From NCBI GenBank assembly GCA_030428205.1, contig JAUIBK010000016.1, positions 11,454 to 75,453 of the forward strand: a stretch of DNA of 64,000 bases. Direction: 5' to 3'. The notes below the pieces were generated by a model. It saw nothing but the letters and a program-made list of their open reading frames with translations, searched no databases and was not told the DNA's origin. The stretch comes from a bacterium. GTDB taxonomy: Bacteria > Bdellovibrionota_C > UBA2361 > RFPC01. This document shows positions 200-54,995 of the stretch, one piece after another (the first letter of the stretch is position 1; the number at the start of each line of letters is the position of its first letter). The position numbers and the translations under genes are program-made.

Positions 200-721
200 A
201 TGAAGTCCAAATTCATCTTAATGCTCTTATCACCTTTCATTTTTATTCATTCTACCCTTGCTGAACCAGAATTCTCGGACCAGCAGTTATCCTTTGCCGA
301 TCTTTCATTCAGTTTTGACTCTCTTTCGTTGGAAACGCCCTCAATTCCTTCTCAGCGAGGAAAGAAGAAAAATACACTCGGTACATACTCTGGTACGTTT
401 GTTCTTGCTAAGAGTAAAAGCTTCAATGGTGCCAGCTGCACACCGACTCAGTCCTTTCCAGCTGTATTTACTGTTAGTGGAAAAAAGAACCGCCCAACTG
501 GTCAACTAGGGAATATCCCTATTTCATTTACTGGAAGAGCAAATAAAAAAGGGGCAAAACTCAAAGGCACTTATGTCTCAAATGGCTTGACTCGAAAATA
601 TACGATGCTTATTCGGAAAGTGAAGTCTCAGTCCGCAAAGTTGATCTTCAAAGAGACCATTAAGAGTGGGAGCCTCAAAGCGTGTCTCTTTAAGCACACT
701 GCATCTTTTTCTCGCTCATAG
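200..721 (+). CDS. Secreted hypothetical protein with an N-terminal signal peptide
   Basis: The ORF opens with MKSKFILMLLSPFIFIHSTLA, a hydrophobic leader followed by an AxA-like cleavage site. It has no recognisable domain. Confidence 0.45.
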   Translation: MKSKFILMLLSPFIFIHSTLAEPEFSDQQLSFADLSFSFDSLSLETPSIPSQRGKKKNTLGTYSGTFVLAKSKSFNGASCTPTQSFPAVFTVSGKKNRPTGQLGNIPISFTGRANKKGAKLKGTYVSNGLTRKYTMLIRKVKSQSAKLIFKETIKSGSLKACLFKHTASFSRS

Positions 722-1015: not shown

Positions 1016-1103
1016 TGCTCACATGTCATTGATTTTATGAGTAATAAATGATACTTACGTTGTTTGCTTGCACCATGTAAAAGCAGATCTAGGGAGTATC
1101 AAA

Positions 1104-2591
1104 ATGGGCAATACCGCCGCTGAAGATCACAGCGAAAACCGCAGCCAAGAGAGCCAGAATGGCAGCTGTGATGACAATAGCGTAGCTACAAACGGACAGA
1201 TCAAACCAGATGTCCTAAAGCTCATGGCTCAGATCCGTGAGCGAGTAAAAGAAGATGCCTCGCAACAAGAAGATGTAAGACCGGCGTTTCGTCCTGAAAG
1301 CTCGGAGCCAGGCAAAGGAAGCAACCGCAAAGCTGGAGAGCTCCTCTATTCTGAAGAGCTCCGATATATCAACAGCAACTACTCGTACAGTCTCCGAAAT
1401 AACTTCGATTCGCTCACTTCTCACCGTCCAGGGATTCTTGGAAAGTTCATTGTAAAGGTAAAGCGTAAGCTGCTCTCGATTATTTGGGATAGCTTACTCA
1501 AAGAATACTTTGAAGCAGAAAAAGAGTATCAAGCAAATGTCGTTCGTTTTTTAAACGATGTGAGCAAGTATGTTGATGAGCGTGATGGATCAAACTTCTG
1601 GGAGCTTATCCGTAAGATCGATGTGGATGTGACAAAGGCCATCGAACGTATTGAACGAATAAGTGACGAGCAGATGGGTTCTATCCGGTCTTCTGAGCGG
1701 AGAGTGTTTGATGCTCTTGATGAAGCGCTAGCGAGCCTTCGTGGTTCTATAGAGGGGCTTACTGGCACAGTGCAAAAGCATGATGTTGGCCTCTGTGAGC
1801 TAGAGAGTGTCGCAAGTGGGCTTGAAGGGATCATTGCGAAACTTGGAAAAGACTCTGTTCCTCGTACGCAAGAAGAAGGAGAGAGCAAGCAGGTACCAGA
1901 CTACTCCTACCTTATGCTTGAAAACCGCTTTCGTGGTAGTGAAGAAGCTATTAAGAATCACCTCAAGATATACCCGCCAATTTTTCAAAATGCCTCTGCT
2001 CCTATCCTTGAGATCGGCTCTGGTAGGGGAGAGCTCCTTGAGCTCTTTCAAGAGGGTGGGAATGAAGCATATGGAGTTGATATCGACCACGCGATGGTTG
2101 AGGCAGCGTGTGCTAAAGGACTCCGTAGTGAGCTTGGTGACGGCATCGCTCACTTGCGCTCACTTGAGCCAAACTCTCTTGGTGGTGTTGTTGCTATCCA
2201 AGTTGTAGAGCACCTCACGCAAGCACAGCTCGAAGAGCTCTTTGAGCTCGTTGCCTCACGTGTTGTCTCAGGTGGAAAAGCTGTCTTTGAAACTATTAAT
2301 CCACAATCTGTTATGGCGCTCTCGTCGAACTACTTTAGAGACCCGACACATGTTTTTCCACTTCATCCAGATACCCTTTCGTACACTATGAAGTTAGCAG
2401 GGCTTCCCACTCCGAAGGTCACCAAAATCTCTCCTGTTCCTCAAGAAGCACAGCTCAAACCAATTCCTGTGGAATCGTACATGACACCACGTTGGGCGTT
2501 TGTGATTGAGCGGATGAACTGGAACTTTGATCGCCTCAACGATCTTCTCTATGGACACCAGGACTACTTCATTGAAGTAGAAGTTCCTTAA
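1104..2591 (+). CDS. Coiled-coil N-terminal domain fused to a class I SAM-dependent methyltransferase
   Basis: The motif I methyltransferase signature LEIGSGRGELLELF...GVDID is present. AGGGAG sits 9 nt upstream of the ATG at 1104. The ORF track starts at 1068. Confidence 0.6.
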   Translation: MGNTAAEDHSENRSQESQNGSCDDNSVATNGQIKPDVLKLMAQIRERVKEDASQQEDVRPAFRPESSEPGKGSNRKAGELLYSEELRYINSNYSYSLRNNFDSLTSHRPGILGKFIVKVKRKLLSIIWDSLLKEYFEAEKEYQANVVRFLNDVSKYVDERDGSNFWELIRKIDVDVTKAIERIERISDEQMGSIRSSERRVFDALDEALASLRGSIEGLTGTVQKHDVGLCELESVASGLEGIIAKLGKDSVPRTQEEGESKQVPDYSYLMLENRFRGSEEAIKNHLKIYPPIFQNASAPILEIGSGRGELLELFQEGGNEAYGVDIDHAMVEAACAKGLRSELGDGIAHLRSLEPNSLGGVVAIQVVEHLTQAQLEELFELVASRVVSGGKAVFETINPQSVMALSSNYFRDPTHVFPLHPDTLSYTMKLAGLPTPKVTKISPVPQEAQLKPIPVESYMTPRWAFVIERMNWNFDRLNDLLYGHQDYFIEVEVP

Positions 2592-9831: not shown

Positions 9832-12800
9832 CTAAACCTCGGCAGGTGGCTCAATTGATATCCGTAGTGTACAGAATTCTTCGTCGTTTTGGATAGATCG
9901 TGCTCGCTGTTCTAGATGAAATCGGAAGCCGTTTCGATTTGCAAGCTGGTGAAGTCGCGCGGAGAAAAAGCGAGCACTTGTTGATTGTCGGGTATCAAGT
10001 TCCAGCCGTATCTCTCCACCTTCAGAGAGGTAGTGGTATCGGAGCAACTCTTCGAACCCTCTTGAAAGCCGAATGGCCGCTTCACGTTGCCTCTTACTTG
10101 AAGCAAAACTAGATACAACGATGAGTGGATTACCCTCTTCATCTCTTCCTTCGTAAGCCAAGAGGAAGGCATCCAGCTCACCATCTGGCTGAGTGTGCTT
10201 AAGAAGAAGTGAAGGTCTTCCCTTTTGATGATTGTTAATAGCTACAGCTGTAGCAAAGTGAAAGAGGTCTACCCCTTCATGATCGAGAACAACGGGATTA
10301 TCGGTATAAGCTATCCTTTCAAGTTGACGTACAGCTAACCAATCAGACTGCTCGATAAGAGAAACTTGAGGGGGCAGAGAAACCGGTGCGGTATATTTTG
10401 CTCTGCTCTCCTGAACCTCTCCTACCTCTCGAGAGAAAAGCCGTTCATTCTCACCAATCTTAAGCTGGATGACACTCTCTCCATAGTTATCAGAATATCC
10501 AATAGGGATTTCAGGTAAGAAGTTGTTCGGTTGTCGAGGAAGCTTTGTGACTACACTCGAGAATGCTTCACCGATCGGTATCCAGTCTTTGGAGGTATCC
10601 CAAGAGCTATTGAGACGATTCTGGTAATTTCCAAAGAAATCAGAGAGGAGTTCGGGGAGTAAGGTGGCTAGAGTGCCCTCTCGATAATTTGGATGCACTT
10701 CTAGGTTATCCAAAGCAAGTTCGGACTTTGCGCCAACTCGAATAATCTCATCACTTGCCTCAGCCTTACCAATGAGACCACGAAGTTGTTCAGATGCTGG
10801 AACCGGCACTCTAGAGACCCTCGTGAGCACACTTTGTGCAAAGGTTCGCTGCGAACCATCAGGCCTTTCAAGTCTAACAGTGAAAAAAGCAGCGCTCGGG
10901 TTCACCGTATAGCTGTTGGTTTTTCCTACACCAAATAAGGCGCATTCGGTTATATCGTTGGCAGCGATTACACCGAGCGGATCTGATGGAAGATGAATCT
11001 CTGCTATTACTGCTACTGGTTCGTCAGGAATCCCGAACTGAGGATTGAATAAGATCTCTCGCAGTTGCGCATGGAAGTGCTCGCGCCCAGAGGCGATCAT
11101 GAGAGGAGATGAGGTAATGCAATCAGGTTCTGAAATATACTGCTGAGGTGAAACACCATACTGAGATAGTAACCCTTTTACAGAGTGAAAGAGTTTCCCA
11201 CTATTTCGAGCAAGTGGCTTGTCACCCGACTGAGAGCTTCCGAGAGCTCGTTTCAACAGTTCATGTGGAGTTGCTTGTATTGCGTCTGGGTTCACTTCAT
11301 AACGAATTCGGAAAGGAGGGATACTTTTCGTCGCGTCTAGGGTGCCATCCATCCATGCAGTGCGAAGATCTTCTGGTGTAAGATCTAGGTGTTCGAACAG
11401 GAAGAGATTCGACACATTCCACTCTTTGTCAGCATCTTCATTGAGTGAACTGTCTGGGCGAGAAAAGAATGCTTCGGGAGCCGTGATAAGGTCCTGCACG
11501 GCAGAAAGATCTATCTTGCTCCCAGGATGACCTATGAGTGGGTCTATGAACTTTACTAAATTGAGGTCACCACTATCGACGACATTCTGAAGCTGTTCTT
11601 GCAAACCTGCTGTTAGAGCAAGCTCTTCCAGTTCAGCATACTGCCGAAGCTTTGCCCAGGATTGAAAGGGGGTGGTCTGTTGGCTGAGCTGTTTCGCAAG
11701 TTGCTGGAGATGTGGGAATCCGGAGAGAGTTGAGAGACGAGCCGATATTCCCTTTCTCTCAAAGGTACAGGTGTTTCCAATTTTCTTCAAAAGTTGAGTA
11801 GCACTCCCTCCGCTATAACTATGACCGTCCTGCTTGACCTGTGAAAGGATGTTGTGCGTAAAGGCTTCAAGTGAGAGTCCAGATTGGTGATAAAGCTTTA
11901 CGATAGCATGTATTCCGTGCAACGCAGCAACGGAGGAACGATTGGTATCTCGTAAGTACCAGAGTAATCTATCAGCTCCTAAGACTTCAGCTGCCTCGCG
12001 AAACTCTCCTTCAAGAGATTTTGCCATTTCCCATTGAGGAGAATACTTGAGAAGTGCTTCAAAGGTCGCTATTCCACCAAGTTCTGACGAATGAACGCCA
12101 TTGAAGTAGATCATGTCGAGATCAAGAAGTGAGATATGTAGTTTTTTTGCAGTAGGAAGGTCTGATTGGTCTACACAAGAGAACCACTCGGGATCTTCAA
12201 GCAAAGTTGCGACATACTCTTGATTCTCACGCTTGAAACGGACGAGTTCCTCAAGGGTCGTAACCTCAAATCCTTCCCTCAAGCATGCAATCACCTCGGG
12301 TGTGAAGCCTTCTAAAGCAGTAAGGTCATCTCCTAGGTAGTGTTCTGCTATTACTTGCGCGACTTGAGAGGAATGTCCTCCTCCTGCCATTTGAATCCCA
12401 ATTCGCTCGAAAGAAGAGCCTTCAAACTCAAAACAGCTCACCATCGCTTTCGCTGCGAGTTCTCTGACAGATTCAGGCTGAATGGAGAACTTCTCTATGA
12501 GATAATCGGCGCAACCAAATGCTCCTGCTGCAATCGCTCGCTCTACACTGAGAAGAACACTCTCTCTGATCTCTTCATGCTCCTCTAAGAGAAGCGTGGA
12601 AGTGTTATAGGCTGTAACAACTCGCTCGGGGTTCCAAGGGAAGGTGAGAGTTGAGGGGATTCCCGAAACAAGTTCACGCTGCACATCTTCGGCTCGGATA
12701 ATGTCATCTACTTCTTCTTTTGAAAGCGAGCAGCGATTGATTACATCGAGTGGATCGCCATCACCGTAAAGCCCCAATGTCTTCAGAAGTGCTTCTTTGA

Positions 12801-13017
12801 ACTCTCTCTGTTCGCCAGAGAGCCCTTGGAATGTTGCCCGTGCAAGATGAGGGTGCTGTATCCGAGTAAGGAGGTTCGTAAACTCTTCACTCGATATTGA
12901 TGTTTCAGCGCTGAGCGTCTGATCGCCCTCTGGGGCGTGGGGGAGAGAAGCTGTCTCTCCTCCTTCGTTATGAGTTATTAGCTCACCTAGTGGTGATAGA
13001 AGGGGAGTGTGCGCCAT
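9832..13017 (-). CDS. Large (1061 aa) acidic hypothetical protein, no recognisable domain
   Basis: A long uninterrupted ORF. It has no Walker, nuclease or other motif I can identify. Confidence 0.5.
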   Translation of the reverse strand: MAHTPLLSPLGELITHNEGGETASLPHAPEGDQTLSAETSISSEEFTNLLTRIQHPHLARATFQGLSGEQREFKEALLKTLGLYGDGDPLDVINRCSLSKEEVDDIIRAEDVQRELVSGIPSTLTFPWNPERVVTAYNTSTLLLEEHEEIRESVLLSVERAIAAGAFGCADYLIEKFSIQPESVRELAAKAMVSCFEFEGSSFERIGIQMAGGGHSSQVAQVIAEHYLGDDLTALEGFTPEVIACLREGFEVTTLEELVRFKRENQEYVATLLEDPEWFSCVDQSDLPTAKKLHISLLDLDMIYFNGVHSSELGGIATFEALLKYSPQWEMAKSLEGEFREAAEVLGADRLLWYLRDTNRSSVAALHGIHAIVKLYHQSGLSLEAFTHNILSQVKQDGHSYSGGSATQLLKKIGNTCTFERKGISARLSTLSGFPHLQQLAKQLSQQTTPFQSWAKLRQYAELEELALTAGLQEQLQNVVDSGDLNLVKFIDPLIGHPGSKIDLSAVQDLITAPEAFFSRPDSSLNEDADKEWNVSNLFLFEHLDLTPEDLRTAWMDGTLDATKSIPPFRIRYEVNPDAIQATPHELLKRALGSSQSGDKPLARNSGKLFHSVKGLLSQYGVSPQQYISEPDCITSSPLMIASGREHFHAQLREILFNPQFGIPDEPVAVIAEIHLPSDPLGVIAANDITECALFGVGKTNSYTVNPSAAFFTVRLERPDGSQRTFAQSVLTRVSRVPVPASEQLRGLIGKAEASDEIIRVGAKSELALDNLEVHPNYREGTLATLLPELLSDFFGNYQNRLNSSWDTSKDWIPIGEAFSSVVTKLPRQPNNFLPEIPIGYSDNYGESVIQLKIGENERLFSREVGEVQESRAKYTAPVSLPPQVSLIEQSDWLAVRQLERIAYTDNPVVLDHEGVDLFHFATAVAINNHQKGRPSLLLKHTQPDGELDAFLLAYEGRDEEGNPLIVVSSFASSKRQREAAIRLSRGFEELLRYHYLSEGGEIRLELDTRQSTSARFFSARLHQLANRNGFRFHLEQRARSIQNDEEFCTLRISIEPPAEV

Positions 13018-13267
13018 ATTCGTGTCCTACAAGTCCCTGTTGGCAGGCTACAGAACTCCCAGCAGCTAATCAAAAATATCTCTCTGGAGAATGAGGAGAG
13101 CAAAGCTAAGCGTAGGAGATTTTATAGCTTGAGTAGTTTCAATGGCTTCTGAGAGTGCATCGATGAGCTCTAGGCTATGATTTCATATGGAGTATCTCTC
13201 GAGTATAAAATTTCAAGAAAGCTCGAATTTACAGGAATCTAACTGTTCATCTTGAGTATATACCCCG

Positions 13268-13488
13268 TGAGATCAGGTCTGTCGTGCTCTCTGAATGTTT
13301 GTGGCGCGTATGGTGGTGTGAAAACTGGTCGCTTTCACGTGTTTTTCTGCACGGTGTATATTTGTCTTCTCCAGGGAAGTACGCTGCTAACGCAGCATAC
13401 TTCCCGTGCGGCGTCCCCGAGGACGCCTTGAAAAGCGCATGGCGTTTTTTATACTCAAATCAGCTTTGTCTCCGACAAACCTGATCTC
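13268..13488 (+). repeat. Structured repeat element, copy 1. It is a candidate sRNA, cis-leader or MITE-like element, and its second copy is at 51213-51411.
   Basis: About 80% identity to 51213-51411. It has the terminal inverted repeat caggtctgtcg...cgacaaacctg and internal helices carrying compensatory changes. Its 3' hairpin carries a T-tract. Confidence 0.6.
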
Positions 13489-13589
13489 TTTGAGTTTATT
13501 TGACTAACATCTTCAAAATTTTGATACTTCGTTATCACCAAATGGACGGGGGATTGAGATATATTCTTCCATATCTTTAGGAGCTGCAC

Positions 13590-14732
13590 ATGAATTGCAA
13601 ACAAAAATGTCTTTTTATTCTTAAAAGTCTCTCGATAGTTTCACTTTTTCTTTTCGCTATGAGCCCTACTGCTTATTCAGAGGTTACCTGTGTGAAGGTC
13701 AAGTTGAATAAAAAGAAGAAGCCAAAGCTCGTTACTAAAGTTTTCCCAGATGCTTGCCCCGGAAAATTTGTACAGATTCAAGATACCAACGCAACTGTTC
13801 AAGGTGCGCAGGGGCCAAAGGGAGATACTGGGGCGCAAGGACCTCAAGGGCAGACTGGCCCGCAAGGCCCACAAGGATTGCAGGGGCTCCAGGGAGTGCC
13901 GGGAGTCGATGGGGCAGATCTGTATGAACGTACCATTGTCGTTCCTGCTGGAGAGGCGCCAACGGAGAATGGTAGTGCCCTTCTGAATGCTGCTTCTGGG
14001 CTTGTTGGAACTGTCGATGCTCCTTGGATGATTGAGCTTGAGAGCGGCACGTATGATCTTGGAGACCTTGTTCTTGAGCTTGGGACTTACGTGTCTCTTC
14101 GTGGAGCTGATACTCATAGCACTGTTGTGACAGGTTCGTCGTCCAGTGCAGTCGTTGATACAAATACTGGTAGCTCTCTTCGCAATATGTCAATTTTTGG
14201 AACTGCTATCACCACAAGCACCTTGTCTGGAGTTGTACGTGTTGATGACGACAACGATGTTCTTATTGAGAATGTCAAAATGACAAGCACTGGTCGTGGC
14301 TTGCTACTTGAGAATTGCTCTGGAGTGAAAATAAATCGTATCGACATTACAGCAGCTGGTTATGCTATTAATACGGATCATTCATCGCTTGATACCACGA
14401 TTTCAGATTCTCAAATAACCTCAACCGGTGATTCTGGTGTCGATTTTGGTACTTCGACTTCCCATACTATCGTTGAGCGTTGTGTCGTTACTGCCACGGC
14501 AATAGATCAGAGTGCTCTGCGAAGTAGTGGAGGAAGTGGTATCGTTCGTCATTCAACTTTGATTTCAAGCTTTGGTGGCACACTTGAAAGCTCAAATGGG
14601 AACACTGACATCGTAATCTCTCAAACGTATGTTGATGTTGAAGATTCTTTCAACATGCATTTTACAGGGGGAACAGCATCTTGTACTGCTATTTCCACAG
14701 ACAGTACATTTAGCACAACTACTTGTCTTTAG
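13590..14732 (+). CDS. Secreted collagen-like triple-helix repeat protein with a C-terminal right-handed beta-helix (pectate-lyase-like) domain
   Basis: Signal peptide, 15 G-X-Y repeats (GAQGPKGDTGAQGPQGQTGPQGPQG...), then Thr/Ser/Gly-rich beta-helix-type repeats. Confidence 0.65.
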   Translation: MNCKQKCLFILKSLSIVSLFLFAMSPTAYSEVTCVKVKLNKKKKPKLVTKVFPDACPGKFVQIQDTNATVQGAQGPKGDTGAQGPQGQTGPQGPQGLQGLQGVPGVDGADLYERTIVVPAGEAPTENGSALLNAASGLVGTVDAPWMIELESGTYDLGDLVLELGTYVSLRGADTHSTVVTGSSSSAVVDTNTGSSLRNMSIFGTAITTSTLSGVVRVDDDNDVLIENVKMTSTGRGLLLENCSGVKINRIDITAAGYAINTDHSSLDTTISDSQITSTGDSGVDFGTSTSHTIVERCVVTATAIDQSALRSSGGSGIVRHSTLISSFGGTLESSNGNTDIVISQTYVDVEDSFNMHFTGGTASCTAISTDSTFSTTTCL

Positions 14733-14828: not shown

Positions 14829-17378
14829 TCAGGTATTACTTTCTATAAGATAGTTGTCGTCATCTGAGGCATCTTCTTCAGAGCATGCATATGTTTTTAC
14901 TGGAAGTTGTTTCGCAGCACCAATCGCTTGCTTAGCGAGTCTATGAATACGTTGGAGCTTTTTCTTTCGCTTTGTGCCTTTGAGGGCAAGGCGTAGTACT
15001 TTCTTCGCTTGTGACTTTAATGAGCGTATTGAATTTATGTACGTTTTCTTCTCTGAGCGAGTCTTCTTTTTTGTACAGAGAAGGGAGTCGTTGCATTTGA
15101 GAAGTTGCAGTTTCGTAACATCTCTACTTGCGCCTATCGCTTGTTCGTGAAGGAGGTTAAGAGTAGTAGACTCTTCAAGCAGTGCAGTCTGGTTGCTGCT
15201 TGACGTGTATGCTTTATGAGCAAGAGAAAGAGCAAGTTCTACCATGGCGGTGAGTTTTCGATTCGCTTTGATTATTTTCTTGCTCTTATTTTTTGTCTTA
15301 CAGTTATAATCTGCGAAATTTCTTTGTCGTACGACGACTGCTGGAAGGACTTCGCCTGTTGAGAGAGCTATGGAGTTGGTAGCGAGTGTGAGATCCTCAC
15401 GGTCTATGCTCAGGTTGTAGTCTCCTGCTGGGACATTCTGAAATGTAAATGTGTTTCCTTCTTCCAGAAGAGTGACGAAGGAACGAGGATGAGAAGATAT
15501 TCCACTCTCAGAAGTTGCGTCTGCTTCTCCTCCTGTTCTTGGAGTAAGGTGAGCTTGGGTGCCTGAGAGATCCGAAGAGGCTCCACCGACAGTACCACGA
15601 ACATCATAAAGGTCTTCTCCATCCTCTTGGCTTGTAGGTGTAGGAGCGGGAAGAGGTGGCGCATCGGGGAATTCCGCTGGTTGTACAACTTCGGTGAGAG
15701 CCGTAAGCTTTTCGTTTTCCCCAAGAGTAAGAAATGGACCATAGAGAAAACTACCAGGATGAGGGATGACAAATCGAATCGTATTCGTATAGCCATAGTA
15801 TGCTACATAAGGAGTTTCAGCGACTGATGTATCAAGATGTTGAATGCCAACTATTCGAGGAAATTCTTCTGGGTGAACACCGATACTGCCATACCAGTCC
15901 CCATTCTCGTAATCAAAACTTGGAAGTTCTTCTCTCCGAACCCAATAACCAGCGGTGTGCACGAGCTGATCATCATCAAAACTAGCGAAGCTCGAAATAG
16001 GGCTTATGAAGTTGACAAAGCTACTTGATACGCTTTTATCACCTCGATCGACTGTTTTATAGAGATAGAGGTTTCTGAAGTAATCATCCGACACAGCTTT
16101 TTCGACGAAAAGGACCGCATCACCATAGAATCCAAGACTTGAAAGAAGGGTAGAGTCTCCATTCAAAGAGAGGAGAGTTTCTTCATCGTCTCCATCTACC
16201 AAGTCAACACTCACTATGGTCTGTGAATCACTGCAGTAGTAGAGTCGGCCATAAATATCATCAGCTAACAGGCAGTAGACCGAAGAGTTTTGAAGAGTGA
16301 GAAAGTCTTCCACGTTTGTGCCATCTGCATCGGCCATTTTAATTTTGACGGTATTTCCGCTTGCATCCACCCAATACAGTTTTTCTGTCTCCACAGAATA
16401 GCTCATTGCCTTTACGTCTCCGATAGTATCGGAATCAAATACAGGCACGATTTCTTTCGTTATGTTTGTCCAAAATATTCGGGAAGTATTGAGTTGTGTA
16501 TCACGAACAGCAAAGTACATTCTTGTATCATCATAGATGCTCGAGGTGGGCTCCTGTGTGTCCCCTGTAGTAAAGTTCGCTATGATATCATAACCTTTTT
16601 GAGAAGCGACTGCGCTTAGAGAAGACCCATTTGTATTGACACTGCTGAGAAGTGTCCCTGAAGAAGGTGCGCCAATGAAGAGCAGCTTTTGAAGAGTGTT
16701 ATCATATGTAATTCCACGGGGAGAATTTGTACTTGAAGAGAGGAATGCTTCAGGAGAACTTCCATCGGTATTACATCGATAGATGGCATCTTTTGTATGG
16801 TTCGACCAATAGAGTTTTCCATTGAATAGAGTAAGATTGGTGAGGGTGTCTCCTTGGGCAATATTGTCGAAGAGAGAAGATTGATTGAGTCCATCACTGA
16901 GGTTCACACGCTCGATTCCTTCGAGGCTTGCGTAGTACAGAGTGTTTGTTGACTCGCTTACGAACAGACCATAGGGGTCTGACATACCAACAAGAAACAG
17001 CTCTTTGTTGCTACCATCTAGATCGGCTCGATAGATAGCTGCTTCCTGTGGATCGCTCCAGAGTATTTTATTATTTGTCAGGTCGAGTGCGATATCGTTT
17101 ATGGAGCTACTTGCTGAGGCAAAAATGGTGACGATATTGCTCCCATCCCGATTGGCTCGTTTTATTGAGGGGCCAGAGTCACTGTAATACAGGTGGTTAT
17201 TCTCAGGATCGTATGCGAGGGCTCTCGTTGCTGACGCAATGAAGGTTGAAGTTACGCTAGTCTCGCTGTCAACTAGTTTAATATCGCTGCCTGTAGCAAC
17301 AAGGATGTCCGCTGATAAGGGAAGCGACGATAGAAGGAGCAAAGTAAAGAGTATTCGAAGGAGGCTCATATATTTCAT
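14829..17378 (-). CDS. Secreted YWTD/LDL-receptor class B beta-propeller repeat protein with a Lys-rich C-terminus
   Basis: Signal peptide. Repeats of type LYYSD...IKRANRDGSN, ILWSD...IYRADLDGSN and LYWSN...IYRCNTDGS. The C-terminal tail is KK-rich. Confidence 0.6.
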   Translation of the reverse strand: MKYMSLLRILFTLLLLSSLPLSADILVATGSDIKLVDSETSVTSTFIASATRALAYDPENNHLYYSDSGPSIKRANRDGSNIVTIFASASSSINDIALDLTNNKILWSDPQEAAIYRADLDGSNKELFLVGMSDPYGLFVSESTNTLYYASLEGIERVNLSDGLNQSSLFDNIAQGDTLTNLTLFNGKLYWSNHTKDAIYRCNTDGSSPEAFLSSSTNSPRGITYDNTLQKLLFIGAPSSGTLLSSVNTNGSSLSAVASQKGYDIIANFTTGDTQEPTSSIYDDTRMYFAVRDTQLNTSRIFWTNITKEIVPVFDSDTIGDVKAMSYSVETEKLYWVDASGNTVKIKMADADGTNVEDFLTLQNSSVYCLLADDIYGRLYYCSDSQTIVSVDLVDGDDEETLLSLNGDSTLLSSLGFYGDAVLFVEKAVSDDYFRNLYLYKTVDRGDKSVSSSFVNFISPISSFASFDDDQLVHTAGYWVRREELPSFDYENGDWYGSIGVHPEEFPRIVGIQHLDTSVAETPYVAYYGYTNTIRFVIPHPGSFLYGPFLTLGENEKLTALTEVVQPAEFPDAPPLPAPTPTSQEDGEDLYDVRGTVGGASSDLSGTQAHLTPRTGGEADATSESGISSHPRSFVTLLEEGNTFTFQNVPAGDYNLSIDREDLTLATNSIALSTGEVLPAVVVRQRNFADYNCKTKNKSKKIIKANRKLTAMVELALSLAHKAYTSSSNQTALLEESTTLNLLHEQAIGASRDVTKLQLLKCNDSLLCTKKKTRSEKKTYINSIRSLKSQAKKVLRLALKGTKRKKKLQRIHRLAKQAIGAAKQLPVKTYACSEEDASDDDNYLIESNT

Positions 17379-38181: not shown

Positions 38182-38343
38182 GAGGCGGAAGCGGATACCA
38201 AGAATAAGACCAAAACGAAGATATAGGTCAAGGCGGAGGCTGAGAAAAAGATAAAGAGCAAGGAGATCCTATTTCTCAGCCTCTATCTCAGTCTTCGTCT
38301 AGATCTTGGTTTTGGTCTTATTCTTGGCCTTGGTCTCCGCCTC
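38182..38343. repeat. Long imperfect palindrome of 6-bp tandem units, copy A. The same family is at 52864-53082.
   Basis: Arm GGCGGA AGCGGA TACCAA GAATAA GACCAA... pairs with TCTTGG TTTTGG TCTTAT TCTTGG CCTTGG TCTCCG, with a perfect 18-bp core. Confidence 0.6.
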
Positions 38344-50052: not shown

Positions 50053-51114
50053 CTATGTATTAGGGGAGATCCAACCTGAAAAGAGTAGGTCCGTCAGTGG
50101 CTGGGGGGCATGGTAAGTATATAGAATTATTAGTTTTGATAAGACTTGCTGTACTTCATGACGGATGTTGAGAGACGAAGTTCGTAGTTCAGTAATCTTC
50201 AACTGTGCGTTGGTCTGTTCGGCCAGTGCACTTTTGTATGAACTAGCTATATCAAGACTTGAAGTACGGATCCTACTGAGAGTTTTTTGAAAATCTTGAG
50301 GGCTACGTGCTCGGACTTTTCCCCCAGTTTGTTCGAGAAGCTTTTTGAGCGAGTTGAGGGTAAGAATATTGTCTCGAAGTGCTGGAATTTGTGGAAGATC
50401 CTTTAAAACCCCCCCTCCATAGACCTTGATAGATGAAGCTGGAGCGAGATCCCGAAAACTAGGATATCCCATAAATTCACGGAAATCCTCGGCAACGAGC
50501 TGAAATCTCTTCACTGAGCTACTTAGTGTTCCTTCTAATTGGCGTAATCTCTGTTCTTTTCCATCAATCTCTTCCTCTATATCAGTGTGTTGATGGGCAA
50601 GAGCGCGAGCATACTCGAGTCGAGCCGAGAGGTTTTCTCCTGAGCTCTTGAGCTCGAGTAGTGCTGGAGAATTTGGCAGCATCTCTTCATCAAAAGTATT
50701 TTGACCCATGATAGTCAAAACCTCTGAGAGTCTCCTCCTCTGAAGCAGAGGAAGGGCTTTGGCGTAGTGTTTAGCCGCTGAAAAGAGAAGCTTTTCTAGC
50801 TGTCTTGGGTGGGAGAAGCCCGGAAATGCAATGGTACTCAGTCGAGAGGTCGAGCGATCGATAAGCTCAAAGTATTCAGAAACTTGTGCTATATTTCCTT
50901 TTTCGAGGCTCTCTCGTAGTTTTTGAGAGGCTAAGACATGGTGCAGGTCTGACGTGAGGAGGTAGATGTACACAGAGACAAGGCCAACACCCAGAACAGA
51001 GAGTGCAGCAAGTACCCACACTTTCGCGGAGACTCGGATCTTAAGGTTGGGGTTGAGTAATAGTATGCCTTCGTCCATGTCACTATATCTACCAGAAGTC
51101 TGTGGAGATGGCAC
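50053..51114 (-). CDS. Single-pass membrane protein with a long coiled-coil
   Basis: Transmembrane helix VWVLAALSVLGVGLVSVYIYLL followed by heptad-like charged repeats. Confidence 0.45.
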   Translation of the reverse strand: MPSPQTSGRYSDMDEGILLLNPNLKIRVSAKVWVLAALSVLGVGLVSVYIYLLTSDLHHVLASQKLRESLEKGNIAQVSEYFELIDRSTSRLSTIAFPGFSHPRQLEKLLFSAAKHYAKALPLLQRRRLSEVLTIMGQNTFDEEMLPNSPALLELKSSGENLSARLEYARALAHQHTDIEEEIDGKEQRLRQLEGTLSSSVKRFQLVAEDFREFMGYPSFRDLAPASSIKVYGGGVLKDLPQIPALRDNILTLNSLKKLLEQTGGKVRARSPQDFQKTLSRIRTSSLDIASSYKSALAEQTNAQLKITELRTSSLNIRHEVQQVLSKLIILYTYHAPQPLTDLLFSGWISPNT

Positions 51115-51212
51115 TTAGTCTTCGTGGCATATTCCCCGAGATCGACAATGCGGAGCTCTTGCAGCATCGAGGGATGGAAGTATCCAAGGCCACCAATGGG
51201 GATATACCCCGT

Positions 51213-51411
51213 AACCTCAGGTTTGTCGTGCTCTCGGAGTATGGTGCAGCGTATCGTGGTGTGAAAGCTTGTCGCTTTCACGCGTATTTCCCCACGGGGT
51301 ATATTTGTCCTCCCCAGGCCCATAAATGGGCCGTGCGGCCTCCCCGAGGAGGCCTCGAAAATGCTTCGCATTTTATACTCAAGCAGCTTTGTCTGCGACA
51401 AACCTGGGTTT
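51213..51411 (+). repeat. Structured repeat element, copy 2, the same family as 13268-13488
   Basis: caggtttgtcg...cgacaaacctg perfect 11-bp terminal inverted repeat. Internal helices are conserved with compensatory changes. Confidence 0.6.
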
Positions 51412-51493
51412 GAGCATATACTTGATCAAATTTTTGATGTTTTGATGCTTGCTTGCTATCCTAGCCTCTTCATTTGCGTAACCGAGAGGTATT

Positions 51494-52831
51494 ATGAGTG
51501 AAAGAGCTGTGCTTGACGGCAATGAGAAACCCTCACCTTTATGCTCGAGTGAGCTTGGGGGCTGTGCGATGAGCCAAGAGCATCGATCTCTCGGAAAGCA
51601 AGTCCGCTCTGATTTCCCGTTCTTTGGTGGGGATAGAGACCAAGAGTCATCAAGAATAGCGTTTCTTGATTCGGCGGCGAGTGCTCTTAAGCCACAAGTT
51701 GTAGTGGATCGCATGTCTCATTACTTGCTCCATGAGCATGCAAATATCCATCGAGGTGCATACAAGCTTAGTGCTGATGCTACGGCAGCATACGATCTCG
51801 CTAAACTCCAAGTTGCTCAATTTCTCTCAGCCCCATCGGCTTCTTCTATTATTTTCACACGAGGGACTACAGAGGGAATCAACCTGCTGGCTCATAGCTT
51901 TGGAGAGAGGCTTGAGAAGGGTGATAGAGTCTTGCTCACTACGCTAGAGCATCACAGCAATATTGTGCCTTGGCAGCTTCTTGAAATGAGAAGGGGAGTA
52001 GGCGTGTCGTACGCTGATATTCGAGATGACGCCGCTCTTGATCTCGCGGATCTCTTTGCAAAGCTTCGCCAAGAGAAACCAAAATTACTTTCGATTACCG
52101 CCGTTTCAAATGCGTTTGGGACTATTATTCCACTAGAGAAGATTATTCCAGTTGCACGAGAGGTCGGTGCGCTTGTTCATGTAGATGCTGCTCAAGGAAT
52201 TGTGCACTTTCCGCTTGATGTTCAAAGTCTCGATATTGATTTTCTCACCTTCTCAGGTCACAAGATCTACGGCCCAACGGGAATTGGTGTCTTGTATGGA
52301 AAGCCGGAGCTTCTGGAAGCGATGCCTCCATACCAAGGCGGAGGTGACATGATCCATGAGGTCACGCTAGACGGTTCAACCTGGGCTGAATCACCTCGTA
52401 AATTCGAAGCAGGTACGCCTGCTATTGCTGAAGCTATTGGACTCGGTGAGGCCTTAGCCTATGTCACCGCACTTGGACGACAAGAGCTTCTTGACTATGA
52501 GTCACAATTGTTTGAAGAAGCTTTTGAACTTCTGTCGCGTGAGCCTGGGGTTACTCTTTATGGCCCTGCCACGAGCATTCAAAACGAGAGAAGCAAAGTA
52601 CAGACGTCAATCTTACCTTTTACCGTAGAAGGTGTGCATCCACATGATATTTCAACTATAGCGGACAGTTTCGGTGTTCAGATTCGTGCTGGCCACCACT
52701 GTGCTATGCCGGCGTTACGGAGACTAGGAATCCAGTCGACGGGAAGAGCGAGTATTGGTGCGTATACTATCTTAGAAGACTTCGAACTTCTGTGTGAAGC
52801 TATTCGGCGGGCGAGGAAGACTTTTCAGTAG
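51494..52831 (+). CDS. sufS: Cysteine desulfurase, SufS/CsdA-type class V aminotransferase
   Basis: RSDFPFF, FLDSAAS..KP, SGHKIYGPTGIGVLYG (PLP lysine) and a C-terminal catalytic Cys region. The true start may be the internal Met at 51569. Confidence 0.8.
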   Translation: MSERAVLDGNEKPSPLCSSELGGCAMSQEHRSLGKQVRSDFPFFGGDRDQESSRIAFLDSAASALKPQVVVDRMSHYLLHEHANIHRGAYKLSADATAAYDLAKLQVAQFLSAPSASSIIFTRGTTEGINLLAHSFGERLEKGDRVLLTTLEHHSNIVPWQLLEMRRGVGVSYADIRDDAALDLADLFAKLRQEKPKLLSITAVSNAFGTIIPLEKIIPVAREVGALVHVDAAQGIVHFPLDVQSLDIDFLTFSGHKIYGPTGIGVLYGKPELLEAMPPYQGGGDMIHEVTLDGSTWAESPRKFEAGTPAIAEAIGLGEALAYVTALGRQELLDYESQLFEEAFELLSREPGVTLYGPATSIQNERSKVQTSILPFTVEGVHPHDISTIADSFGVQIRAGHHCAMPALRRLGIQSTGRASIGAYTILEDFELLCEAIRRARKTFQ

Positions 52832-52863: not shown

Positions 52864-53082
52864 GGTCTTAGCCTTAGTCTTAGTCTTAGTCTATAATCTT
52901 GGTCTTGGCCTGATTCTTAGCGTTGGCCTCCGCCTATAAAAACTCCCACTTTCACCTCAGCATGCACGCGTACGGGAACGTCTACGTTAACGTTTCATTT
53001 TAAATGCGAGGATCAGGCTGATGCCAAGAATAGGACCAAGACCAAGATGTAGACTAAGGCTAAGACTAAGGCTAAGGCTGAG
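52864..53082. repeat. Long palindrome of 6-bp tandem units, copy B. The arms are separated by an 88-bp spacer.
   Basis: Left arm CTTAGC CTTAGT CTTAGT...TCTTGG TCTTGG. The right arm is its reverse complement (CCAAGA...CTAAGG CTAAGG). The spacer contains acgttaacgt, gcatgc and acgcgt palindromes. Confidence 0.6.
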
Positions 53083-54098: not shown

Positions 54099-54905
54099 AT
54101 GGAGCTAGCCCGTGATTTACATGCAGACATATTGCCGAAGAAGGACCTAACCCGCATGGCATGTACTCACCTTGACTGTCATACATTTCGTGGTGCAAAC
54201 GCGCTGCTTGATACGTCCTCGTTTGTGTCTTTCAATCCCCATTGCTCACCAGGTAATCTGGTCATCGCTGGTGCTCGCGCCGTGAAACAGAGTATTGGTA
54301 GTCAGGTTGCTTGTAAGCTCTCGCTTGAACATTTTGTAGAAGGCATCCTCGACTATTTCTCCGGTAATTTTAGTGATGAAGATTTTGTTGAGGCTGAGCC
54401 AAGCCTTCGCGCTCTCGAAGCTGCGTTTAAACGTGCAAACAAGAGCGTATACTCTTTTGGCCACAGCCTTGCTGCTGGTGGGAGAATGGCTGCTGCCTTT
54501 ATCGGATTAGTTCTCGAAGAGGAAACAATTGCTTCTGGAAGGGTGGGAAACGGCTCAGCATATCTCTACCGTGCAGGTGAGCTTTTTCCTTTTTTTGATA
54601 GCGCTGATGAGGCTACCCAGGAACATCAGGAGGGTTATCTCGGAACGCAATCGCTTGTATCTGTCGAGCTTGCAAGTGTCGCTATTGAGCCAGGGGATGT
54701 GCTCTACGTTTTCTCGCAAGAGCTAAGTGAGAGCGAAGAGGCCGAACTTATATCCCTCTCTCAAGATATGGATTTTAATAGTCCGGGAAATCCTATCTCT
54801 GAAATTTGTCGTTTCCTCTTTGATTCACCCGATGATGTCGCCTTTGCCACGTTGACACGGGTAGGGCCGGAAACGATCTATCTCGATAATGTTGTTGGCG
54901 GATAA
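54099..54905 (+). CDS. PP2C-like Ser/Thr phosphatase fold protein, possibly degenerate
   Basis: SGRVGNGSAYLYRAGEL resembles the PP2C ANVGDSRAYLLRDGEL motif but lacks the metal-binding Asp residues. Confidence 0.4.
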   Translation: MELARDLHADILPKKDLTRMACTHLDCHTFRGANALLDTSSFVSFNPHCSPGNLVIAGARAVKQSIGSQVACKLSLEHFVEGILDYFSGNFSDEDFVEAEPSLRALEAAFKRANKSVYSFGHSLAAGGRMAAAFIGLVLEEETIASGRVGNGSAYLYRAGELFPFFDSADEATQEHQEGYLGTQSLVSVELASVAIEPGDVLYVFSQELSESEEAELISLSQDMDFNSPGNPISEICRFLFDSPDDVAFATLTRVGPETIYLDNVVGG

Positions 54906-54933: not shown

Positions 54934-54995
54934 TACCACTTTGATAGAGTTTTTGATCCTGTGAAAACAGGATCAAAAACTCTATCAAAGTGGTA
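54934..54995. repeat. Perfect palindrome with 28-bp arms and a 6-nt loop
   Basis: taccactttgatagagtttttgatcctg-tgaaaa-caggatcaaaaactctatcaaagtggta. No flanking T-tract. Confidence 0.7.

Follow-up and report, generated by a model that had tools for sequence, protein, structure and literature searches.

The DNA analyzed here, referred to as the window, is a 64-kb stretch (positions 11,454 to 75,453, forward strand) of contig JAUIBK010000016.1 in assembly GCA_030428205.1, a bacterium of the Bdellovibrionota_C lineage. It contains two copies of a structured intergenic element of ~210–235 nt, which lie 38 kb apart on the same strand: copy 1 at 13254–13488 (+) and its diverged homolog copy 2, on which we focus, at 51198–51410 (+). 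Copy 2 is located between a gene for a 353-aa protein (50053..51114, −) and a gene for a SufS/CsdA-type cysteine desulfurase (51494..52831, +; Pfam Aminotran_5, E 3e-128), hereafter sufS. Copy 1 is located between a gene for a 1061-aa protein (9832..13017, −) and a gene for a collagen/β-helix protein (13590..14732, +). Both copies thus sit between divergently transcribed genes, so that each could as well be called upstream of its unrelated minus-strand neighbor. Between the loci of copy 1 and copy 2, the upstream genes are not homologous to each other, and the same is true of the downstream genes.

The two copies are 85% identical over 239 columns when aligned with MAFFT. A blastn comparison of both whole intergenic regions resolves this similarity into two collinear blocks: block A (51202–51318 versus 13258–13375; 119 nt, 82%, E 1e-25) and block B (51331–51406 versus 13404–13483; 80 nt, 84%, E 2e-17). 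The left edge of the inter-copy similarity is sharp (~51198 and ~13254), and the 5′ flanks beyond it show no similarity, as 686 of 2000 shuffles score equally well. On the right, strong similarity ends with the 3′ strand of the stem that closes the element (P1), and blastn homology stops at 51406. The next ~50 nt are marginally alike between the copies (84 of 2000 shuffles as good, p ~0.04); a shared downstream promoter, considered because of this 3′-flank similarity, was rejected for this reason. A covariance model built from both copies (R1) and run across the window with filters off scored the copies at 254 and 293 bits, with the reverse strand of copy 1 as the next match (18 bits). No third copy was found in the window by this model, by a repeat finder, or by motif and sub-module searches. 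The first-pass annotation of this DNA had described a second copy of the family at 13268–13488, located at 51203–51411; the 82–85% identity and the fold statistics given below bear out the family relationship, and its coordinates are right within a few bases (51198 or 51202 to 51410 in our hands).

With respect to the downstream plus-strand gene, the copies are oriented alike and lie at comparable distances from the start codon, i.e. 83–88 nt for copy 2 and 101–106 nt for copy 1. In copy 2 the core of P1 ends at 51406, 88 nt before the ATG at 51494, and the full stem ends at 51410, which confirms that the element lies directly upstream of the sufS-like gene at the ~88 nt noted earlier. This gap would grow to ~160 nt if the true sufS start is an internal ATG at 51569. 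Judging from the proteins of relatives, which begin at this internal Met position and lack the 25-residue N-terminal extension (51494–51571), the true start may indeed be there.

Copy 2 is predicted to fold into a highly stable structure. On the plus strand, its minimum free energy (MFE) is −99.4 kcal/mol (z-score −6.9), a value reached by 0 of 200 shuffles, and its minus strand folds at −91.8 kcal/mol (z −6.2). The z-score of copy 1 is −4.9 on the plus strand. The copies have a common architecture: a closing stem P1 of 15–16 bp, four hairpins (H1–H4), and a 5′ tail that is complementary to an internal segment (together forming the helix PA). An alternative 3′ hairpin (H5) competes with P1 in both copies. 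These helices were set by hand and checked base by base in both copies, because RNAalifold, given only two sequences, produced a consensus in which alternative pairings were mixed and H2 and H4 were misaligned.

Read along the plus strand of copy 2, the aligned unit begins with the 5′ tail (51198–51212), which has the form TG-NN-GATATACCCCGT and contains a −10-like GATATA/TATATA box. The 5′ arm of PA (51202–51212; ATATACCCCGT) lies within this tail and pairs with 51294–51304, with 11 of 11 Watson–Crick pairs in copy 2 and 10 of 11 in copy 1. It is followed by the P1 5′ strand (51213–51228; AACCT-CAGGTTTGTCG), which is partnered by 51396–51410 with a pair probability of 0.98–1.0. P1 comprises 15 Watson–Crick pairs and one bulge in copy 2 and 15 of 16 pairs in copy 1; its inner 11 bp are conserved, while the outer 4–5 bp differ from copy 1 yet remain complementary. 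The linker J1 (51229–51258) is the least conserved part of the element. H1 (51259–51283; GTGTGAAAGC-TTGTC-GCTTTCACGC) is formed by nine Watson–Crick pairs and one G·U pair, and its arms double as −35-like hexamers, TTCACG on the plus strand and TTCACA on the minus strand. The segment 51294–51316 holds the 3′ arm of PA (ACGGGGTATAT, 51294–51304), which overlaps a −10-like TATATT box (51300–51305), and then a pyrimidine-rich linker (TTGTCCTCCCCA).

The remaining hairpins lie in the 3′ half. H2 (51317–51332; GGCCCA-TAAA-TGGGCC, 6 bp) is the variable arm of the element, as its place in copy 1 is taken by an unrelated, perfect 14-bp hairpin (13374–13405) with a sequence that is unique in the window. 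H3 (51337–51354; GGCCTCC-CCGA-GGAGGCC, 7 bp) differs from copy 1 by a single compensatory change, from C-G to G-C. H4 (51358–51374; AAAATGC-TTC-GCATTTT, 7 bp), in which an A-run in one strand faces a U-run in the opposite strand, is weak (−4.5 kcal/mol in copy 2 and −8.8 kcal/mol in copy 1), and the three pairs that differ between the copies are all paired. The linker J5 (51375–51395; ATACTCAAG-CAGCTTTGTCT-GC) contains, at 51384–51393, a direct repeat of the P1 5′ core (CAGCTTTGTC). Pairing of this repeat with the P1 3′ strand gives the alternative local hairpin H5 (51384–93 with 51397–406; 9 of 10 pairs in both copies). The P1 3′ strand itself (51396–51410; CGACAAACCTG-GGTT) marks the end of the strongly conserved unit, and the 3′ flank (51411–51460) starts with TTGAGCATATAC, which nearly repeats the left end of copy 1 (TTGAGTATATAC). 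The corresponding parts of copy 1 (13254..13492, +) are PA at 13258–68/13351–61, P1 at 13269–84/13473–88, H1 at 13316–40, H2 at 13374–13405, H3 at 13410–27 and H4 at 13431–49.

Two short motifs recur in this region. ATATAC/GTATAT is present four times in and around copy 2 (51202–51207, 51299–51305, 51374–51380 and 51415–51422), with equivalents in copy 1, and each occurrence coincides with a −10-like box and with an arm of a possible long-range pairing. TTGTC/GACAA is present five times in copy 2, versus ~0.4 expected by our own estimate (not computed by a tool), and three times in copy 1.

Pairing is well preserved between the copies. Standard pairs account for 96% of 100 pair cells when the named helices are placed on the MAFFT alignment, and for 30–55% when the partners are slid by 1–3 columns. 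Three aligned pairs, two of them in P1, are changed on both sides. A stronger argument for kept pairing than this covariation is that copy 2 has zero mismatches in the 55 pairs of P1, PA and H1–H4 (with one G·U pair and one bulged U) despite ~15% divergence, together with the swap of H2. As far as two sequences can tell, the element is conserved for its fold rather than for coding or for association with any one gene.

The absence of a coding function is also apparent from the open reading frames (ORFs). The 103-aa ORF at 51102–51413 had been regarded as spurious, and we agree: the ORF exists, its frame is not kept between the copies, and it has no protein match among 5.8 billion proteins. More broadly, six-frame translations of both copies gave no match in this protein set at E ≤10. 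The only ORF common to both copies is a mini-ORF of 7–8 codons, located in J1 in copy 2, which we judge not to be meaningful. A protein-coding gene and a type I toxin mRNA were accordingly rejected as candidates, since indels shift the frames between the copies and no protein homolog was found.

In sequence and structure, the element represents a new family, with no Rfam or database match, although its kind (structured intergenic repeat or orphan RNA motif) is already known. No Rfam 15 family reached its gathering threshold anywhere in the window. The best permissive matches were whalefall-1 (18 bits versus a threshold of 37; copy 2, minus strand) and STnc430 (20 versus 47; copy 1); the whalefall-1 resemblance was rejected as chance, because the permissive matches differ between the copies and remain far under threshold. 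Exact-pattern scans with four different conserved blocks gave 0 and 5 matches in genome contigs and 0 and 10 in metagenome contigs, and screening of these 15 matches with the covariance model showed all of them to be chance. Scans of viral sequences gave 0 matches, and blastn against plasmids and phages returned only chance matches of 28–40 nt to the element. Retron msr/msd, 6S-like rods, integron attC sites and REP/RAYT elements were set aside as well: the fold is branched and not rod-like, and the neighborhood of the element lacks a reverse transcriptase, an integrase and a Y1 transposase.

The fold offers little guidance as to which strand would be transcribed. Strand-informative G·U pairs (A·C on the other strand) number four for the plus strand versus three for the minus strand. 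The extended elements have MFEs of −105.9 (+) versus −96.1 (−) kcal/mol in copy 2 and −92.5 (+) versus −99.4 (−) kcal/mol in copy 1. Because the G·U pairs are split 4:3 and the MFE preference is opposite between the copies, we consider the fold nearly strand-symmetric and assign no strand. Such near symmetry is typical of dispersed palindromic repeats.

PA crosses P1 and would therefore represent either a pseudoknot or an alternative fold. The form closed by P1 and the form with PA and H5 differ in energy by about 0–6 kcal/mol. These mutually exclusive pairings, which use the direct repeat of the P1 5′ strand, follow classic attenuator logic, and together with the conserved junctions of the complex multi-helix domain, the same orientation and the similar start-codon distance they bring to mind a dedicated cis-regulatory leader common to sufS and the collagen-like gene. 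Such a riboswitch-like or protein-binding attenuator would use a signal to choose between a closed P1 (read-through) and a 5′ tail paired internally combined with the 3′ hairpin (attenuation or masking). A cis-acting leader was also one of two options raised in the first-pass annotation, next to a small-RNA gene with a 3′ hairpin that insulates the downstream gene. It would resemble riboswitch and attenuator leaders, as well as orphan Rfam motifs, in having a multi-helix domain closed by P1, a P1 3′ strand that enters an alternative hairpin, and a gene downstream. Unlike known riboswitch leaders, the element matches no Rfam riboswitch, is not kept at orthologous genes, precedes functionally unrelated genes, and has no canonical terminator in copy 2.

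This last point concerns the terminator-like 3′ hairpin of the first-pass annotation, which holds up in part. A modest hairpin is present (the extended H5 at 51378–51414; −12.8 kcal/mol, z −1.6), but it has no U-tract, and a consensus scan found no intrinsic terminator in copy 2, which argues against both an attenuator and a small RNA (sRNA). In copy 1 the 3′ hairpin is stronger (−14.8 kcal/mol, z −4.4) and followed by UUUAUUU, and the same scan found a weak intrinsic terminator candidate inside this copy only. Similarly, no convincing sequestration of the ribosome-binding site was seen.

Comparison with relatives adds to the case against a dedicated leader. Apart from the protein itself, which is on record at 100% identity, the nearest SufS is 59% identical, and the named neighbors are Bdellovibrionales or 'Deltaproteobacteria' metagenome-assembled genomes; sequenced genomes of close relatives are lacking. 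Three relatives (L001, L017 and L018), all distant with SufS 57–59% identical, were compared at the sufS locus. In L001 (59%) the locus is syntenic, with a distant ortholog of the 353-aa gene, sufS, the DUF5610 gene and the next gene, and the element is absent: a 134-nt spacer without similarity takes the place of the about 380–415 nt found here. It is likewise absent upstream of sufS in L017 and L018, where the best covariance-model matches do not exceed 8.7 bits. The first-pass annotation had itself named absence at orthologous loci as evidence against its interpretation, and such absence is seen here, albeit in distant relatives. The idea that one RNA control element joins sufS to the collagen-like gene is weakened by this absence in three relatives, by the divergent setting, by promoter-like hexamers downstream of the element, and by the lack of both a copy-2 terminator and a strand preference. 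We consider a dedicated leader improbable. The same holds, as quite a long shot, for its most far-reaching form, in which the ~210-nt element of this uncultured, Bdellovibrionota-like lineage would represent a class of regulatory RNA not described before, bistable and with a pseudoknot, that would respond to a ligand or protein and co-control a cysteine desulfurase and a secreted collagen-like β-helix protein.

The promoter-like sequences deserve a closer look. Sigma-70-like matches are in excess, with 3–4 found versus 0.5–1.1 expected from shuffles. TTCACG-N17-TATATT is identical in both copies (51277–51305 and 13334–13362), and a minus-strand TTCACA-N16-CATACT uses the other arm of H1, so that the two sites stand back-to-back in the H1 palindrome. 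Downstream of copy 1, TTGACT-N17-GATACT (13500–13528) has 9 of 12 consensus matches; its equivalents in the 3′ flank of copy 2 are weaker (TTGATC-N16-GATGCT and TTGATG-N17-TGc-TATCCT). All of these sites are matches to a consensus and nothing more. Such hexamers between the element and the downstream genes suggest that these genes may have their own promoters, in which case the element may be outside their mRNAs.

This arrangement would fit two paralogous sRNA genes of ~200–220 nt on the plus strand. The RNAs would start at the first base of P1 (~51213 and 13269), be clamped at their ends by P1, and stop at or just after the P1 3′ strand, before the separate promoter of the downstream gene. 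In both copies, the −10-like box of the 5′ tail (TG-NN-(G/T)ATATA) is correctly spaced 7 nt upstream of P1, and the sharp conservation edge lies 15 nt upstream of the stem. As in many stable sRNAs, the entire domain is enclosed by a stem, P1, whose outer pairs covary. The divergent setting implies that the hairpins are not terminators of flanking genes, and the promoter-like sites after the element and the UUUAUUU after the 3′ hairpin of copy 1 fit this picture too. However, the conserved final T is missing from the −10-like box, and no −35 is conserved upstream of it. Copy 2 has no canonical terminator, and neither the G·U pairs nor the MFE consistently favor the plus strand. The 11-nt complementarity between the 5′ tail and 51294–51304 would be left unexplained, as it would lie partly in promoter DNA, and it would be surprising if the genome's only two genes for such an sRNA both fell within 38 kb. 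Overall, we find an sRNA unlikely, albeit worth keeping in mind.

Alternatively, the element could act at the level of DNA, with its hairpins as by-products or protein-binding palindromes. It would then be either a relic non-autonomous transposon resembling miniature inverted-repeat transposable elements (MITEs), in which CAGGTTTGTCG...CGACAAACCTG are the terminal inverted repeats and the motif recurs a third time in a subterminal position, or a promoter cassette, duplicated or mobile, that provides promoters for the divergent genes on both sides. The 11-bp core of the inverted repeat is perfect, and the element holds its motif three times in all. Both ends of the element also carry an imperfect direct repeat of 12 nt (TTGAGYATATAC), which is offset from the inverted repeats and partly inside the conserved unit. 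The strand-symmetric pairing, the absence of the element from the syntenic L001 locus, and the excess of sigma-70-like matches, including the conserved TTCACG-N17-TATATT and the back-to-back TTCACA, are all in line with a DNA-level role. Against a transposon, the outermost 4–5 bp vary yet remain complementary and a 15-nt conserved tail lies outside the repeat, which is the opposite of transposase-defined ends. There is no target-site duplication abutting the inverted repeats, and the window contains neither a transposase gene nor further copies of the motif. In addition, the replacement of H2 and the compensatory changes in H3 and H4 argue for selection on hairpin formation and not on a protein-recognition sequence.

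For the promoter cassette, homologous upstream regions before non-homologous genes have been described as putative mobile promoters (PMC3488235). The present case resembles them in having upstream DNA that is ≥80% identical over >50 nt, with non-homologous coding sequences and upstream neighbors in one genome. These promoters are delimited by ≥50 nt at ≥80% identity within −150 to −51 and by non-homologous flanking coding sequences (PMC3488235). The alignment within this interval here is 37 nt at 92%, which falls short of that length, and the conserved bulk is a structured domain instead of a recognizable promoter. A DNA-level origin of either type is, in our opinion, quite unlikely.

The explanation that we favor, tentatively and as a possibility short of an even chance, is that the element is a lineage-restricted, RNA-structured intergenic repeat of the BOX/ERIC kind that is co-transcribed in 5′ leaders. 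BOX, ERIC and Correia elements have been described as intergenic repeats that fold, are co-transcribed, contain variable modules and influence expression (PMC3049150, PMC3488235). The traits of the BOX/ERIC type are found here as well: the element is intergenic, has a stable predicted RNA fold, and combines conserved pairing ends with a variable interior. The flanking genes of the two copies are non-homologous on both sides, and structure-preserving or compensatory changes are seen in the outer pairs of P1, in H3 and in H4, with H2 wholly replaced by another perfect hairpin. The element would have been duplicated into two or more unrelated sites of this chromosome and would be transcribed within a longer transcript, most likely the 5′ leader of the downstream plus-strand gene. 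The position of the PA 5′ arm points in this direction: as it lies at the edge of the conserved unit with no conserved promoter upstream, a transcript that allows all pairings would start in locus-specific DNA, making the element a module in a longer RNA. Its action could be as generic as that of the BOX, ERIC and Correia families: being a stably folded block, it would change the stability, processing or read-through of a leader. Competition between P1 and the 3′ hairpin might set how much transcription or translation reaches the gene, and the element may also supply promoter-like hexamers. No sulfur or iron–sulfur (Fe-S) regulon with the collagen-like gene would be involved; both genes would simply have gained a copy.

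Among known repeats, BOX of Streptococcus pneumoniae (boxA-boxB-boxC; PMC3049150) is a close parallel. Both are intergenic, a few hundred nt or less, with pairing end modules and a variable center, and both are predicted to form stable stem-loops if transcribed and lie upstream of unrelated genes; BOX can be co-transcribed as a 5′ or 3′ extension (PMC3049150). Spurious ORFs called through the element, and the lack of a clear mobilization mechanism or target duplication, are further features they have in common (PMC3049150). There is, however, no sequence similarity, and BOX exceeds 100 copies per genome versus two in 64 kb here. The interior also differs, consisting here of four distinct hairpins plus a pseudoknot-type complementarity instead of repeated boxB units. 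Correia elements (CREE, Neisseria) and ERIC (enterobacteria) are MITE-like, and are likewise intergenic with terminal inverted repeats that give a long RNA duplex (PMC3049150, PMC3488235). Their ability to bring along or generate promoters and to affect how stable co-transcribed mRNAs are (PMC3049150, PMC3488235) is counted here as a likeness. The termini of Correia and ERIC are conserved and well defined, and Correia insertions show a TA target duplication. In the present element, by contrast, the outermost pairs of the stem are variable and covary, conservation extends into a tail beyond the inverted repeat, and we see no target duplication.

Several observations weigh against the structured-repeat interpretation. 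Calling the element a dispersed repeat extrapolates from two copies in 64 kb. Neither a target-site duplication nor an empty site in a close relative nor a transposase was found, and the absence of the element in distant relatives (SufS 57–59%) does not prove a recent insertion. A shuffle control for covariation was not significant (53 of 500, two sequences), so that with only two sequences the covariation evidence is suggestive and not statistical. Finally, the same orientation and similar gene distance of both copies would also be predicted by a dedicated leader or by a unit of an sRNA plus promoter.

If this interpretation of a co-transcribed structured repeat holds, the element would be one more structured intergenic repeat that seeds the 5′ regions of unrelated genes, this time in a poorly sampled lineage. 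Given that sampling, reflected in a nearest SufS at 59% and a neighboring orphan of 1061 aa, it would help annotation by accounting for a spurious ORF and a long spacer, and would be a candidate for promoter or leader rewiring, although no new principle would follow from it. Its importance would rise if the two-state fold were a real switch or if the element were a stable sRNA, as no known family resembles it. In either case, its position upstream of sufS should not be taken as a sign of Fe-S or sulfur regulation.

The window also harbors a second, unrelated family of structured intergenic repeats (52865–53082 and 38182–38343), which indicates that this genome does carry such repeats. Its members are long inverted repeats with arms of tandem hexamers, GTCTTA/GCCTTA/GTCTTG versus CCAAGA/TAAGAC/TAAGGC, and both loci contain CCAAGAATA(A/G)GACCAA. 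The first is located between the convergent sufS and DUF5610 genes and the second between two minus-strand genes. In the relative L001, sufS is followed by an ordinary long hairpin and not by a hexamer-type repeat.

The window is a piece of ordinary chromosome, with genes for LigA, GltX, PNPase, TyrS and aconitase and no transposase gene. The sufS gene stands alone, without suf partners nearby, and is followed by the convergent DUF5610 gene; its score against the NCBIfam sufS model, 473.7 bits, is just below the cut-off of 475.1. The 353-aa protein upstream of copy 2 belongs to no Pfam or NCBIfam family, and the likely true start of its gene is the ATG at 51078. The 1061-aa protein upstream of copy 1 belongs to no Pfam family and is an orphan, as no homolog beyond itself was found among 5.8 billion proteins; no locus orthologous to that of copy 1 was found either.

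Several ORFs in the window encode domains that are more typical of eukaryotes: LDL-receptor class B repeats (14829–17378, −), collagen triple-helix repeats fused to a β-helix (13590–14732, +), and a DDAH_eukar dimethylarginine dimethylaminohydrolase (59171–60094, +). These may hint at a host-associated or predatory lifestyle.

Two further repeats were noted elsewhere in the window. A PP2C-like gene (54099..54905, +) is directly followed by an inverted repeat (54934–54995) with perfect 29-bp arms and a loop of 4 nt, probably a terminator-type hairpin, which the covariance model of the element matched weakly as a generic long stem. A 46-nt direct repeat with 78% identity (2–47 and 940–985) precedes the consecutive plus-strand ORFs 200..721 and 1068..2591, and may be another shared upstream sequence.

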